IMG/VR virus record: IMGVR_UViG_2828164553_000001
Location: 1-64,000 of that record
Length of the DNA stretch: 64,000 nt
Source: a virus
Lineage: Duplodnaviria > Caudoviricetes
Strand: one strand, 5' to 3'
Of the stretch, positions 13,032 to 47,880 are shown in pieces. Below the pieces are notes generated by a model. That model searched no databases. It saw only the letters and a program-made list of their open reading frames with translations, and had not been told where the DNA came from. Each line of letters opens with the position of its first letter. Within the stretch, counting starts at the first letter, position 1. Both the position numbers and the translations under genes were made by a program.

Positions 13032-13922
13032 ATGGCCTCCTTCACCGCCGTCGATCTATCGAAACTTCAAGCTCCAGACCTGATCGAGGCGCTGGACTTC
13101 GAGACGATTTTTTCCGATGCGCTTGCGCAATTCCGCAGGCTGATGCCGGAGTTCTCCGCGCTCACCGAAGCCGATCCGGTCTACAAGATCCTGCAACTGT
13201 TCGCAGCTCGTGAGCTGCTGTTGCGCCAACGCGCCAACGACAAGGCCCAGCAGACGATGCTGGCCTTCGCCACCGGCACCAACCTCGATCACCTCGGCGC
13301 GCTGTTCGGAGTGGCGCGTCTGGTGCTTAATCCGGGGCAACCGGAGACCGGCGTTGCACCGACCTACGAGTCGGACGTGGACTTCCGCCGCCGGATCCAA
13401 CTGGCACCAGAGGGCTTCAGCGTCGCTGGCCCCGAGGGCGCCTACATCTACCACGCGCTCAGCGCAGCGGCCGATGTCATGGACGCCAGTGCCACCAGCC
13501 CCGCACCCGGGCAAGTGCTGGTCACTGTCCAGTCGCGCACTGGCGACGGCACGGCACCCCAGCCATTGCTGGACCAGGTCGCGGCGATCCTCACCAACGA
13601 CGACGTGCGCCCGCTGACCGACAGTGTCACGGTCCAGAGCGCCCAGATCGTCCCGTACGCCATTCGTGGGCGCGTCTACACCTACGCCGGCCCCGACTCG
13701 GCGGTCGTCATGCGCGAGGCGCTGCGCAGCCTGCAGGCGTATCTGGATGAGGCACATCGCATCGGTCGCGACGTACCGGAATCCGCCATCAAGGCCAAGC
13801 TGTTCGCCGATGGTGTGCAGCGCGTCGAGCTGGATTCGCCTGCAGCCGACATTCGGATCAGCCGCACGCAGGCTGCGTACTGCACCGCGATCGACATCGT
13901 GCACGCCGGCATCGATGAGTAA
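13032..13922 (+). CDS. Baseplate protein J
   Basis: DLSKLQAPD, SVAGPEGAYIYHA, VRPLTD. Confidence 0.94.
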   Translation: MASFTAVDLSKLQAPDLIEALDFETIFSDALAQFRRLMPEFSALTEADPVYKILQLFAARELLLRQRANDKAQQTMLAFATGTNLDHLGALFGVARLVLNPGQPETGVAPTYESDVDFRRRIQLAPEGFSVAGPEGAYIYHALSAAADVMDASATSPAPGQVLVTVQSRTGDGTAPQPLLDQVAAILTNDDVRPLTDSVTVQSAQIVPYAIRGRVYTYAGPDSAVVMREALRSLQAYLDEAHRIGRDVPESAIKAKLFADGVQRVELDSPAADIRISRTQAAYCTAIDIVHAGIDE

Positions 13923-34517: not shown

Positions 34518-34524
34518 CTTTAAT

Positions 34525-34600
34525 TGGTGGGCCGTCAAGGATTCGAACCTTGGACCTATTGATTAAGAGTCAACTGCTCTACCAACTGAGCTAACGGCCC
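34525..34600 (-). tRNA. tRNA-Lys(CTT)
   Basis: 76 nt: GGGCCGTTAGCTCAG...GACTCTTAATC...GGTTCGAATCC...CCCACCA. Confidence 0.97.
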
Positions 34601-34615
34601 TGAAACTGGTCGCAC

Positions 34616-34644
34616 ATTGTATGTGCATTTTTGCTTCGTTGCAA
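34616..34644 (-). promoter_or_regulatory. Sigma70 promoter of tRNA-Lys
   Basis: TTGCAA-N17-TACAAT on the minus strand. Confidence 0.75.
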
Positions 34645-34693
34645 CACCCCGTGACACATCGGGTCAAACATTCCTGCAATTGCTCGTCATCAG

Positions 34694-34741
34694 TGGGGTG
34701 GCTGAGGGGACTCGAACCCCCGACATCTGGAATCACAATCC
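34694..34741 (-). repeat. att core: 3' half of tRNA-His(GTG)
   Basis: GGATTGTGATTCCAGATGTCGGGGGTTCGAGTCCCCTCAGCCACCCCA; the tRNA 5' half is absent. Confidence 0.9.
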
Positions 34742-34778
34742 CGCCCTAGCCCGTAAGCATACAACGTTTTCTCGGATT

Positions 34779-34829
34779 TGTGACGCCGCGGGTGACGTAA
34801 AGATGACATCCGTGGCGTCACAGGTGACG
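34779..34829. repeat. Clustered RTGACR repeats, likely integrase arm-type sites
   Basis: GTGACG 34780, 34792, 34824; ATGACA 34803; inverted CGTCAC 34816. Confidence 0.6.
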
Positions 34830-34833
34830 CGCC

Positions 34834-34852
34834 AATTAGTCGGGGCTATAGA
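34834..34852 (+). promoter_or_regulatory. Candidate phage-RNAP promoter (left-end copy)
   Basis: AATTAGTCGGGGCTATA/GA, 17 of 19 nt identical to 47833-47851. Confidence 0.65.
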
Positions 34853-34907
34853 CCAAACGAACTCTAAGTGGGGAGGAAGCACTCCTCCCCTCTACGCCAA
34901 GACAGTT

Positions 34908-34923
34908 ATCCCACATATGGGAT
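34908..34923. promoter_or_regulatory. Palindromic operator-like site 1
   Basis: ATCCCACATATGGGAT; recurs at 37526 with one mismatch. Confidence 0.7.
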
Positions 34924-35030
34924 ATGATCCGACCTCACTATAGAGGAGCCACTTATAGCTCTCTTCCAGTCCTACCGGAGATGCGCTTCAAGTGACATTT
35001 CCGGCCGTGCCGGTTTCAACTGTTCAGCCA

Positions 35031-35065
35031 ATACCTCCGCCTTCGGGCGGGGGCGTTTTTCGTTT
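35031..35065 (+). terminator. Intrinsic terminator upstream of the RNAP gene
   Basis: CCTCCGCC-TTCG-GGCGGGGG then CGTTTTTCGTTT. Confidence 0.75.
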
Positions 35066-35101
35066 GCCCATTCAATCTCAACTTCGGGACGCATTCCTAA
35101 T

Positions 35102-37522
35102 ATGCAATCTACCGCCCAGACGCTCCATGACCGCCAGCTCCAGCTGGAGTCCGAATCAACCTCCCTCGGCATTGCCCGCTACGAGAAGGCCCGCGCCAAT
35201 TCCGACGAGGCTGACACCGGCCCCGGCAAGAAGCTGGTCATGCAGGCGGTCGCGGCCACCGGCCAAGCCATCCGTGAGTTTGTCGAGAAGGCCAAACAGG
35301 GCGGCGGTGGCCGGAGACACACGGCGGTGAAGTGGCTGGAGCATCTCGACCCCGAGGGCTGCGCCTACCTAACTGCAGTGGTATGCGTGAACGCCCTGGC
35401 TGGTGAGCAGGCCAAGTTGACCGCCGTTGCGCGCTCTGTCGGCTCTGCCATCGCACAGGACGTGAACTACAAGAAGCTGCGGGACAACCACGCAGGCCTC
35501 TATCGAGTAATCCAGCAGCAGCTCAAGAAATCCACCTCCGCGCATCACTCGACCGGAGTGATGAACCACGCCCTCGCCAAGACCGAAACCGAAATGTTCG
35601 TGTTCACGCCGGACGAAGAGGCTCTGGTCGGCATGAAGCTGATCGACCTCTTCATCGAGGCGTCTGGACTGGCCGAAATCATCCTGACCAGACCCCGCCA
35701 GAACCAAACCGTCGCGATCCTGCAGGGCACCGCAGCGATCCGCGAGTGGCTCGCCAAGGCACACGAGAGCGCCTCGATGTTCCTGCCCGTGTGGATGCCC
35801 ATGCTGGTCCCACCCAAGGACTGGACGACACCCCGCGACGGCGGCTACCTCACCGACATCGGCGGGAGAGCGGACCTCGTGCGTACGCGCAACCGCGCCT
35901 ACAAGCGGGAGCTGGAGCAGGCCGACATGCCCAACGTCTACCGGGCGGTCAACCTCATCCAATCCACCCCCTGGAAAATCAACAAACCAATCCTGGAGGT
36001 GATGCAGGACGCATGGGCCGTGGGCGGCGGCTTTGCTGACCTTCCCGACCGCGACCTCTTGGAACTTCCAGAGCAGCCCGCCTTGCTGGTCAGCGATCCC
36101 GAGTTCTACAAGGAGCACCATGCCGATGAATTCAAGGCATGGAAGCGCAGCCGCGCCGAGGTCTACGAGGAGAACGCCCGCGGCACCTCCCGCCGCCTTT
36201 CGGCTGCACAGAAGATCGCTCTGGCCGAAAAGTTCAAAGACGAGGCGGCAATCTATTTCCCGCACAACCTGGACTTCCGCGGGCGTGTGTACCCTATTCC
36301 CTCAATCCTTACCCCACAGGGCGACGACCAAGCCAAGGCTCTGCTGACCCTGGCTGAAGGCGTGCCGCTGGGAGAGGATGGCGCGTTCTGGTTGGCAGTC
36401 CATGTCGCCAACTGCTTTGGCGTCGATAAGGTCGCCTTCGCAGAGCGCGTGTCCTGGGTGAGAGCAAATGAGGAGATGATCCTCGACTCCGCGCTTAACC
36501 CGCTCGACGGCCAGCGGGCCTGGTCCAATGCCGATTCGCCCTTTTGCGCCCTCGCCGCTTGCTTCGAGTGGCTGGGCTACTCAATCAACGGTAACGAGCA
36601 CATGTCACACCTGCCGGTCGCCCTGGACGGCTCTTGCAACGGCCTGCAGAACTTCTCGGCGATGCTCCGAGATTCCGTCGGCGGCGCAGCGACCAATCTT
36701 TTGCCGCAGGACAAGCCGGCCGACATCTACACAGCCGTGATGGACGTGGCCGCCGTGCGTGTAAGGGCAGAAGCAGAGGCAGGCAACGCTTGCGCTTTGT
36801 TCTGGGATGGCGCATTGACCCGCGGCATCGTCAAACAGCCGGTGATGACACTTCCTTACGGCGTCACCAAGTCCGGCATGCGCGGCCAAGTGCAGGCCAA
36901 CGCCAAAAAGGAGGGACTCTCGCCCTCCAACGAGCAGGCCGCTTACCTCGGCGACATTCTCTGGGACTGCATCGGCGAAGTCGTGGTGGCCGCGCGCCAA
37001 GCGATGGACTGGCTGAAGGAAGCATCGAAGGTCGCATCGGCGTCCGACCTCCCAATCGCGTGGACGACGCCGGCAGGCTTTCCTGTACTGCAGGAGTATC
37101 GGGAGGACCTCGGCAAGCGCGTCACGACGCACATCGGGGGAAAGCGCGTCGAATTAATCGTGGCTATGGACGGGAGCAAACTTGACCGCCGCCGCCAGGG
37201 TCTCGGCATCTCCCCCAACTTTGTTCACTCCTGTGATGCGAGCCACCTGATGCTGACCACCTGTCTCGCGTCAGACAACGGGATCACTAGCTTCGCGATG
37301 ATTCACGACTCCTACGGAATGCATGCCGGAAACACCGGAATCCTTGCCGCCTCGTTGCGTCACGCCTTTATTGAGCAGTACGAAAGCGACGTGCTGGGTA
37401 ACTTCAGAACCGAACTGGCCGAACAACTCCCGATAAAAAACGCTGCTGACCTTCCGAAGATTCCTCCCTTCGGTGACCTGGACCTCTCCGAAGTGTTGGA
37501 GAGCAGCTATTTCTTTGCCTAA
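35102..37522 (+). CDS. Single-subunit T7-like RNA polymerase
   Basis: DFRGRVY, DGSCNGLQ, R..VKQPVMTLPYG, PNFVHSCD, IHDSY, YFFA C-terminus. Confidence 0.98.
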   Translation: MQSTAQTLHDRQLQLESESTSLGIARYEKARANSDEADTGPGKKLVMQAVAATGQAIREFVEKAKQGGGGRRHTAVKWLEHLDPEGCAYLTAVVCVNALAGEQAKLTAVARSVGSAIAQDVNYKKLRDNHAGLYRVIQQQLKKSTSAHHSTGVMNHALAKTETEMFVFTPDEEALVGMKLIDLFIEASGLAEIILTRPRQNQTVAILQGTAAIREWLAKAHESASMFLPVWMPMLVPPKDWTTPRDGGYLTDIGGRADLVRTRNRAYKRELEQADMPNVYRAVNLIQSTPWKINKPILEVMQDAWAVGGGFADLPDRDLLELPEQPALLVSDPEFYKEHHADEFKAWKRSRAEVYEENARGTSRRLSAAQKIALAEKFKDEAAIYFPHNLDFRGRVYPIPSILTPQGDDQAKALLTLAEGVPLGEDGAFWLAVHVANCFGVDKVAFAERVSWVRANEEMILDSALNPLDGQRAWSNADSPFCALAACFEWLGYSINGNEHMSHLPVALDGSCNGLQNFSAMLRDSVGGAATNLLPQDKPADIYTAVMDVAAVRVRAEAEAGNACALFWDGALTRGIVKQPVMTLPYGVTKSGMRGQVQANAKKEGLSPSNEQAAYLGDILWDCIGEVVVAARQAMDWLKEASKVASASDLPIAWTTPAGFPVLQEYREDLGKRVTTHIGGKRVELIVAMDGSKLDRRRQGLGISPNFVHSCDASHLMLTTCLASDNGITSFAMIHDSYGMHAGNTGILAASLRHAFIEQYESDVLGNFRTELAEQLPIKNAADLPKIPPFGDLDLSEVLESSYFFA

Positions 37523-37525
37523 TAC

Positions 37526-37548
37526 ATCCCACATTTGGGATTAATCCC
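37526..37548. promoter_or_regulatory. Palindromic operator-like site 2 with an extra ATCCC half-site
   Basis: ATCCCACATTTGGGAT overlapping GGGATTAATCCC. Confidence 0.7.
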
Positions 37549-37564
37549 GAGAAAGGAACAAATC

Positions 37565-39268: not shown

Positions 39269-39630
39269 AAAAGATGGCCAACCCTGACCAGCTGTTCGTA
39301 ACCGCCTCAATGACGCGGCCGGACCACTCTGTCACTGGCGCCGAACTGGCGCGCATCCACCGCTCGCAGGGCTTCTCCAAGATCGCAGTCCACTACGTCA
39401 TCGAGCGCGACGGAACCGTCTTCGACGGCCGCGGTTTGGACGAGCCGGGCTGCTTGGCCGCGCGCGCAAACGACCGATCGATCCAGGCGTGTCTGGTCGG
39501 CGGTGTCGATGACGCCCTGACACCAACCAACAACTTTTCCAAGCAACAGCGAATGGCGCTGCGGCGAGTCGTGCGTAAGCACGGTCTTCCCGTGGTGTTC
39601 GACCGCGTGTGCCCACTACAGGAAATCTAG
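39259..39630 (+). CDS. T7 lysozyme (gp3.5) homologue, apparently catalytically degenerate
   Basis: HYVIERDGTV..GR, SI.ACLVGG, NFSKQQ align with T7 gp3.5; Zn/catalytic residues are substituted. Confidence 0.85.
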   Translation: MRLKKMANPDQLFVTASMTRPDHSVTGAELARIHRSQGFSKIAVHYVIERDGTVFDGRGLDEPGCLAARANDRSIQACLVGGVDDALTPTNNFSKQQRMALRRVVRKHGLPVVFDRVCPLQEI

Positions 39631-39632
39631 CA

Positions 39633-40013
39633 ATGAAACTGTCCCGTCAAGCCAACCTGATCGTCGATCACCTCTACAACAACCAGCACATCACCTCGTG
39701 GCAGGCTGAGGGCGTCTACCGCGTCCGCCGCCTGGCGTCGCGCATTACCGAACTGAATCGTGCCGGCTACGACATCCGCAAGGAGCGTTGCGAAGACGCG
39801 ACGGGGCAGTCCTACACGCGCTACTCCTTCACCCGAGCGCAAAAGCGTCGCAGCACGCCGGTGCACCCGCAGACCCCCGAGCAGCCGCGCTTTCTGCTGG
39901 ATCGCCTGATCGACCTTTACCGCACCTACTGCGCGAAGGAACTGGGCCTGGGTGGCGATGACCTGGACACCGAGACCGAAGACTTCCGCCGCTTCCTCCA
40001 GGAGGCCAAGTAA
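39633..40013 (+). CDS. Winged-HTH DNA-binding protein
   Basis: HL...ITSWQA...RLASRITEL..AGYDI. Confidence 0.75.
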   Translation: MKLSRQANLIVDHLYNNQHITSWQAEGVYRVRRLASRITELNRAGYDIRKERCEDATGQSYTRYSFTRAQKRRSTPVHPQTPEQPRFLLDRLIDLYRTYCAKELGLGGDDLDTETEDFRRFLQEAK

Positions 40014-47304: not shown

Positions 47305-47838
47305 ATGAAGATCGTCGGCATCTCCGGCAAGGCTGGCTCTGGCAAGGACACCCTCGCCGGTTTTCTTGTCGAGCATCAAGGCTTCGTCCGTATCGCGCTA
47401 GCCGAACCATTGCGCCGCTTTGTGTCGGACATCACCGGCCTGAGCATGGAGGACCTGACCGCAGGCCCCCTGAAAGAAGCACCGCTCGACTGGCTGGGTG
47501 GTACTTCCCCCCGCCGCCTCATGCAGACCATCGGCACCGAATGGGGTCGAGACATGATCGACGAGAGCCTTTGGCTCAAAGTCGCCGCCCGCCGCGTTGA
47601 GGAGGCCCGTGCTTTCGGTGCTGCTGGTGTCGTCATTCCTGACGTACGTTTCGAGAATGAAGCGATGCTGGTGCGAGAACTGGGCGGCAGCGTGGTCGTC
47701 GTGGATCGACCGGGCGTCGCCTCAGTCGCAGACCATGCAAGTGAACGCCCCCTGCCCTCCGGGCTGGTGGACCACACCGTGGTCAATAGCGGGACGCTGG
47801 CGCAGCTTCGAGCGGCTGCGCAGGAATTGGCGAATTAG
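47305..47838 (+). CDS. Deoxynucleoside monophosphate kinase
   Basis: GKAGSGKDT, PRRLMQTIGTEWGR, DVRFENE, HASE. Confidence 0.92.
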   Translation: MKIVGISGKAGSGKDTLAGFLVEHQGFVRIALAEPLRRFVSDITGLSMEDLTAGPLKEAPLDWLGGTSPRRLMQTIGTEWGRDMIDESLWLKVAARRVEEARAFGAAGVVIPDVRFENEAMLVRELGGSVVVVDRPGVASVADHASERPLPSGLVDHTVVNSGTLAQLRAAAQELAN

Positions 47839-47880
47839 TCGGGCCTCTAGAGGGAAAACCCACGGTTTTCCCCTTTCTAG
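47833..47880 (+). promoter_or_regulatory. Candidate late phage-RNAP promoter with a phi10-like 5' hairpin
   Basis: AATTAGTCGGGCCTCTA/GAGGGAAAACCCACGGTTTTCCC..TCTAGA at the start of the structural cluster. Confidence 0.7.

Follow-up and report, generated by a model that had tools for sequence, protein, structure and literature searches.

How do temperate T7-like phages silence a self-amplifying RNA polymerase? T7-like phages were long regarded as strictly lytic, and we know of no experimental demonstration of how the temperate ones do so. The question is raised by the first 64,000 nucleotides (the window) of the 121-kb provirus record IMGVR_UViG_2828164553_000001 (G000; coordinates marked "record" run past the window end), where a T7-like prophage of about 43.7 kb is integrated in a tRNA-His gene with its T7-type single-subunit RNA polymerase (RNAP) gene at the extreme left end. 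On each side of this gene stands a palindrome of the form ATCCCA-N4-TGGGAT, called here O1 (upstream, ATCCCACATATGGGAT) and O2 (downstream, ATCCCACATTTGGGAT). A first-pass annotation made from the letters of the window had read both as repressor operators. We consider it likely, and with some assurance, that O1 and O2 are the operators of the prophage's own MarR-type repressor, encoded off the window beside the integrase (Table 1), a reading drawn from sequence comparison.

Palindromes on both sides of the RNA polymerase gene

With as many as 3 mismatches allowed, ATCCCACATWTGGGAT is found in the window only at the places of O1 and O2, each on both strands, which makes 4 matches against 0.29 expected; none of 100 shuffles reached 4. 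Both 16-mers lie where the first-pass annotation had put them, together with a third half-site after O2. Also as it had said, O2 begins at the fourth base after the RNAP stop codon (37520-37522), inside the 42-nucleotide (nt) gap between the RNAP gene and the next gene. The spacing between O1 and O2 is 2618 bp in the window prophage and 2451 bp in G003, a related prophage described below. O1 had been placed in the spacer of a sigma70-like promoter, AAGACA-18-TATGAT, and our promoter scan recovers this promoter (9 of 12 positions); its -10-like hexamer is retained in relatives and its -35 is not.

Seven related proviruses with 95-96% identical RNAP were compared, and the conservation that the first-pass annotation had proposed to look for is there: all seven retain the half-sites at both RNAP flanks, the flanks themselves vary, and the central 4 nt vary as well (CATA, GATT, GATA, TATG, CATC and TATT). 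O1 stands out as a conserved block where the leader varies most, with 12 of 12 half-site bases invariant in 4 lineages. O2 is retained in 8 relatives with an invariant right half and a variable spacer, and its left half shows single changes in L009, L010 and L012, none of them compensated. The extra half-site reads ATCCC in 4 lineages (window, L008, L009, L013) and CTCCC in 3 (L010-L012). The syntenic placement of the sites holds in the related records G001 and G002. In locus L013 (3001-6790, record G002) the RNAP gene matches residues 1-570 only and O2 is displaced downstream by about 1.35 kb, which suggests that an insertion interrupts the gene.

A constant stem with a free loop, transcribed on both flanks of the RNAP gene, is also what would be seen if the palindromes folded into small hairpins in the RNA (AUCCCA-loop-UGGGAU), either to stabilise the two ends of the polymerase mRNA or to mark them. 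In T7, processing takes place at the corresponding positions: RNase III sites R1 and R1.1 flank gene 1, and promoters phi1.1A and phi1.1B follow it. The likeness to T7 lies in the position of control elements directly before and after the polymerase gene. However, the T7 elements are RNA processing sites and promoters, and the palindromes resemble neither. RNase III hairpins have a long imperfect stem with compensated pairing, whereas the stem here is 6 bp, far shorter than such substrates, and the left-half changes in L010 and L012 break the pairing without compensation. Such uncompensated changes argue for recognition of the sequence and against a mere RNA stem. Also, the same sequence, and not the pairing alone, recurs at 8 or more places, including the spacers of host-type promoters, where it is not transcribed in that register, and integrase coding DNA (next section). 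A hairpin role is thus very unlikely, and the operator reading is kept in what follows.

The wider set of sites in the record

The whole record was scanned for ATCCCA-N4-TGGGAT. With up to 2 mismatches we found 10 sites against 3.5 expected, and with up to 1 mismatch 4 sites against 0.25 expected. Of the 10 sites, 9 are within the prophage, which makes up only 36% of the record. Besides O1 and O2, the prophage sites are at record 70304, 70572, 70607, 71054, 78251 and 78286, with a doubtful one at 74995, and weaker copies of the motif are present at record 69153 and 35075. No copy, weaker ones included, is found from 37.6 to 69 kb. The earlier claim of no late-region copy is thus upheld, no site with up to 2 mismatches being present from 37.6 to 70.3 kb of the record; the six or seven other copies, past the window end, were out of reach of the first-pass annotation. 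The site at 74995 (2 mismatches) falls within a minus-strand open reading frame (ORF) of an AT-richer island, and we regard it as a probable chance match; the site outside the prophage (window 29953, 2 mismatches) is taken as chance.

The excised phage would have the order early promoters, early genes (ardA included), regulator, integrase, attP, phage promoter, RNAP and class II genes. Site 70572 abuts an early promoter, TTGACA-18-TAGGAT (10 of 12 positions, the best sigma70-like match there), and 70607 is within its spacer, whereas 70304 and 69153 are each directly followed by a TTGAC box. These four sites adjoin or lie inside three host-type early promoters at the left end of the phage. The site at 71054 is arranged like O2, with an operator, an extra half-site and a ribosome-binding site (RBS) in succession, and 78251 and 78286 fall within the final codons of the integrase gene. 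On excision the latter two come to lie upstream of phi1, the candidate promoter for the phage's own RNAP, with O1 downstream of it, so that sites are present around the RNAP promoter. The operator set is most likely of about eight sites (8-9), which occupy the early/lysogeny region and the flanks of the RNAP gene. Certain spacings recur in the set: 35 bp separates both the pair at the early promoter (70572/70607) and the pair at the integrase end (78251/78286), and 18 bp separates operator and half-site at 37526/37544 and 71054/71072; in G003 a pair spaced by 18 bp is found upstream of the regulator gene.

As the excised phage has 78251/78286 and O1 on opposite sides of the att core, about 320 bp apart, we also considered binding sites of a recombination protein (integrase arm, excisionase or architectural factor) around attP. 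This we judge highly improbable: O2 and the early-promoter sites are 2.6-8 kb away from attP, and palindromes within promoter spacers point to transcription. A better fit for arm-type sites is the direct repeat GTGACG, of which 5 copies are present at window 34781-34830, between the att core and phi1. G003 has these candidate integrase arm-type sites too.

Regulator and sites change together in a related prophage

The prophage of record G003 (locus L014) is closely related to that of the window in its RNAP (87% identity), DNA polymerase (91%), winged helix-turn-helix (wHTH) protein (82%) and integrase (76%), but its MarR-like protein is only 35% identical. The predicted recognition helix is also different (SSRNVTSWT against ASRHIMDWS in the window regulator). 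G003 shows no excess of the window-type site, with 1 match at 2 mismatches against 1.35 expected, and has instead 7 sites of the form ATCCA-N4-TGGAT against 0.67 expected. Two of these flank the RNAP gene, one after its stop at the place of O2 and one before its start at the place of the weak window copy; the others are at an early promoter, ahead of the regulator gene and within the 3′ end of the integrase gene (Table 1). By comparison, the G002 regulator is 58-62% identical, yet it has the same recognition helix and window-type sites. Helix and site therefore agree in G000, G001 and G002, and both differ in G003.

This comparison also bears on the promoters of the phage polymerase. The first-pass annotation had aligned O2 with the T7 promoter without gaps; we reproduce this match (37520-37540, 15 of 21 positions, the best in the window), and a phage promoter follows the polymerase gene in LUZ100 and S2B, so the palindromes could be taken for promoters, or promoter relics, of the phage RNAP. 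However, the 'TAATAC' part of the match to O2, which includes the RNAP stop codon, is TAGCAC, TAGTAC, TAATGC or TGATAC in relatives. Promoters of T7-type phage RNAPs are asymmetric, about 19-23 bp long, repeated ahead of middle and late genes and linked to the polymerase, whereas the palindromes are symmetric and have no copy before the late genes. A separate asymmetric motif, AATTAGTCGGGGCTATAGA, is present at three places of the record (34834, 47833 and a weaker copy at 37152) against none expected. All three syntenic places are retained in four prophages, G003 included; the 37152 copy is at the same place in G001-G003, although coding constraint confounds its conservation. As the palindromes change in G003 and this motif does not, the sites appear to follow the repressor and not the polymerase. 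The suggested derivation from a phage promoter is therefore dropped. On the comparative evidence the palindromes are operators and not promoters, a promoter role being extremely improbable.

The operators could still belong to another protein, namely an unrecognised early (Cro-like) protein, the wHTH protein or a host factor. Several early ORFs of no known family also differ between G000 and G003. Yet among the 20 far-end and early ORFs scanned, no DNA-binding family was found apart from that of the MarR-like protein. The wHTH protein had been named as a possible binder, but it shares 82% identity with the orthologue of G003, and residues 1-82 differ at only 4 positions. Its DNA-binding half (about 96% identical) is nearly unchanged where the operators differ, so that the wHTH protein cannot account for the altered sites. 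A host factor would not be expected to switch specificity between prophages of related hosts, and the agreement of helix and site across the four records points to the MarR-like protein. Another binder is thus unlikely.

The MarR-like regulator

The regulator matches a PHROG transcriptional regulator (1.1e-6). Its family has 31 clusters among 1.84 billion representatives, 9 of 26 members match Pfam MarR_2, and the family profile matches solved MarR proteins with an E-value of 9e-9. The AlphaFold2 (AF2) model (predicted local distance difference test score, pLDDT, 91.9) has a winged helix with long terminal helices, and its top structure matches are of the MarR family only. The regulator is also homologous to gp10 of phage LUZ100 (hhalign 99.8%), which is annotated as MarR family. 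A tblastn search of the regulator against isolated phages gave no match, a word-indexed protein search gave one near-identical cluster only, and a search for related loci with a 4-member regulator alignment returned the same lineages only.

A proposed lysogeny switch

Conserved half-sites with a free spacer, their presence at the same places in relatives and their change along with the repressor all agree with the operator reading of the first-pass annotation. Its proposal of a repressor encoded off the window likewise fits the MarR-like gene adjoining the integrase. Recognition would be by a repressor dimer contacting ATCCCA and TGGGAT, half-sites with a centre-to-centre distance of 10 bp. 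In the lysogen the repressor would shut the host-type early promoters. On O1 it would cover the weak host-type promoter and stand in the path of transcription from phi1, such that neither host polymerase nor trace phage polymerase could start the self-amplifying RNAP loop, and the leader terminator would be a second barrier. Bound at O2, the repressor would keep transcription that runs out of the RNAP gene, that from the candidate promoter at 37152 included, from entering the class II (DNA-metabolism) genes. Repressor binding and the action of O2 are what we infer from this arrangement. The repressor may act by roadblock, by occlusion or by the looping suggested in the first-pass annotation; the O1-O2 distance differs between lineages, and we know of no looping domain in MarR proteins.

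In T7lac vectors, lac repressor (dimeric or tetrameric) bound to a palindrome just past the phage promoter restrains a T7-type polymerase. The arrangement here is alike in that a repressor palindrome is present downstream of a phage-polymerase promoter, but T7lac is man-made and its operator is only a few bases past the start, whereas O1 is at +58. Blocking of a T7-type polymerase at +58 (O1) or +358 (O2) is less certain than in T7lac, and this is one of several points that weigh against the proposed switch. The window's regulator alone scores below every Pfam threshold. Upstream of the regulator gene no clear operator is found in G000, unlike in G003, and the exact place of O1 is not kept in G003, where the corresponding site is nearer the ATG by about 170 nt. 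An inverted repeat of 6 bp around 4 unconstrained nt also fits a small RNA hairpin. Also, other early genes differ between G000 and G003, and therefore the change together with the sites does not by itself single out the MarR-like protein.

Comparison with known systems

The closest described system is that of LUZ100 gp10, in which the MarR-like gene and the integrase are co-transcribed and the RNAP gene has a phage promoter immediately ahead of it (PMC10134795). The hypothesis that a MarR regulator represses the RNAP via sites flanking its promoter is from Boeckman et al. (2022, Virology 568:86), as described in PMC10134795. The first-pass annotation had put forward the locus as an undescribed system; going by that description, MarR-like repression of the RNAP gene via sites around its promoter is already a published model. 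The two systems share the protein family, the gene order (early promoters, regulator, integrase, attP, phage promoter, RNAP) and the proposed logic. The difference is that the LUZ100 paper (PMC10134795) names no repressor binding sites, whereas here sites are defined with comparative backing, and they include one right past the RNAP stop and others inside the integrase coding end, beyond that paper's account.

We also inspected LUZ100 itself (OP329100.1; L059, L060), where TATCCAC-N2-GCGCATA occupies the spacer of each mapped host promoter (P1 and P2), has two copies in the stretch from integrase to RNAP gene and another 4 nt past the RNAP stop, and recurs in several middle and late intergenic gaps. 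LUZ100 has in addition two perfect ATCCAC-N2-GTGGAT palindromes, at 13197 and 14661; neither motif is mentioned in the LUZ100 paper (PMC10134795). Caulobacter phage S2B, Rhizobium phage Pasto, a metagenomic lineage and a Comamonadaceae prophage all show one short element repeated on the two sides of the RNAP gene. Going by these candidate elements, temperate T7-like phages may fence their polymerase gene as a rule. More tentatively, and as a possibility that we rate below even chances, the site past the polymerase stop may be a conserved element of the switch that has gone undescribed until now, the same repressor site on either side making the RNAP gene a doubly gated cassette in several distant temperate T7-like lineages. 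These may comprise the two Xanthomonas immunity types, LUZ100, S2B, Pasto, the metagenomic lineage and the Comamonadaceae prophage. As some sites are inside the integrase coding end, integration at attP would in such a cassette split the operator set around phi1, and if this is true, the free phage and the prophage differ in control geometry.

Stoperators of Cluster A mycobacteriophages (L5 gp71) are repressor sites within transcribed regions and between genes that are thought to stop elongation. The sites described here are alike in being inside transcribed regions and between genes. Stoperators, however, are asymmetric and oriented, with 20-30 copies genome-wide, as against about 8-9 symmetric sites with none in the late region, so the present sites do not class as stoperators. 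The finding is a clear example and not a new principle. The window prophage and that of G003 form a natural pair, with nearly the same genome and different repressors and operators, and therefore the published MarR model can be tested directly by swaps. They would also supply two orthogonal sets of repressor and operator for use alongside a T7-type polymerase.

Other features of the prophage

The left boundary of the prophage is a duplicated att core in the 3′ half of tRNA-His. An exact repeat of this 42-nt core is found at L007 14365-14406, within the intact tRNA-His, from which the prophage span follows. The features of a temperate T7-like phage, namely a T7-type single-subunit RNAP, an integrase and integration at a tRNA, are all present. 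The RNAP of a prophage in Xanthomonas arboricola pv. juglandis CFBP 2528 is 96% identical, and the host of the window prophage is therefore probably a Xanthomonas. The closest RNAPs of isolated phages are 40-43% identical.

Table 1. Coordinates of the features discussed (window positions unless marked "record" or "G003"; nt, nucleotides; aa, amino acids)
Feature	Coordinates	Strand	Remark
attL, 3′ half of tRNA-His (duplicated att core)	34697-34750	-	prophage left boundary
phi1, candidate promoter for the phage's own RNAP, AATTAGTCGGGGCTATAGA	34834-34852	+	predicted start G 34851
5′ stem-loop of phi1 transcript, stem GGAGG/CCTCC	34870-34890	+	stem constant and loop variable in relatives
weak sigma70-like promoter AAGACA-18-TATGAT	34899-34928	+	promoter scan 9/12
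O1, putative operator ATCCCA-CATA-TGGGAT	34908-34923		in sigma70-like spacer; +58 to +73 of phi1
intrinsic terminator in leader	35034-35060	+	42 nt before RNAP start; retained in relatives
possible weak operator ATCTCA-ACTT-CGGGAC	35075-35090		3 mismatches; 12 nt before RNAP ATG
T7-type single-subunit RNAP, 806 aa	35102-37522	+	Pfam RNA_pol 3.8e-116, RPOL_N 7.8e-22
candidate internal phage promoter	37152-37170	+	3 mismatches to phi1; within RNAP 3′ end, 358 nt before O2
O2, putative operator ATCCCA-CATT-TGGGAT	37526-37541		starts 4th base past RNAP stop
extra half-site ATCCCG	37544-37549		18 nt after first O2 half-site; reaches RBS of next gene
first gene after RNAP, 44 aa	37565-37699	+	no known family; 73-95% identical in relatives
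wHTH protein, HTH_39	39609-40013	+	Pfam 1.5e-12
late phage-promoter motif copy	47833-47851	+	before structural genes; without nearby operator
MarR-like regulator, 149 aa, probably starting at Met16	record 76600-77049		directly upstream of integrase
tyrosine integrase	record 77060-78322		Pfam 6.2e-17; adjoins intact tRNA-His
intact tRNA-His	record 78359-78435		prophage right boundary
site before RNAP ATG	G003 1771		1 mismatch; ends 13 nt upstream of ATG; place equivalent to window 35075
site after RNAP stop, ATCCA-CTTA-TGGAT	G003 4222		4 nt past stop; O2 place
sites at and within spacer of early promoter TTGACA-17-TAGATT	G003 36661, 36932
site pair upstream of regulator gene	G003 42376, 42394
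site in integrase 3′ end	G003 44238

A blastn search of the leader against isolated phages gave no match. The terminator of the leader is present at the equivalent place in G003 (L014, about 1720-1755) with a hairpin of other sequence, which means that structure and not sequence is conserved. A T7-like CTCACTATAG at 34934-34943 was dropped, since relatives do not conserve it. Contigs of four RNA-library runs from another strain cover 34519-35481 only and have unlike sequence past 35481; they speak neither for expression nor for silencing of the RNAP gene. Over window 34694-35481 these contigs are 95% identical to the att core, the leader and the first 380 nt of the RNAP gene, and their break at 35481 may be due to a prophage remnant or an insertion.

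Two genes of the early region may also be noted. A 354-aa minus-strand ORF (L007 10604-11668, record 74604-75668) in the AT-richer island has no Pfam or PHROG match and is a possible cargo gene. An ArdA anti-restriction gene (L007 7966-8676, record 71966-72676; Pfam 1.9e-33) is present amid the early genes, in the position of T7 gene 0.3.

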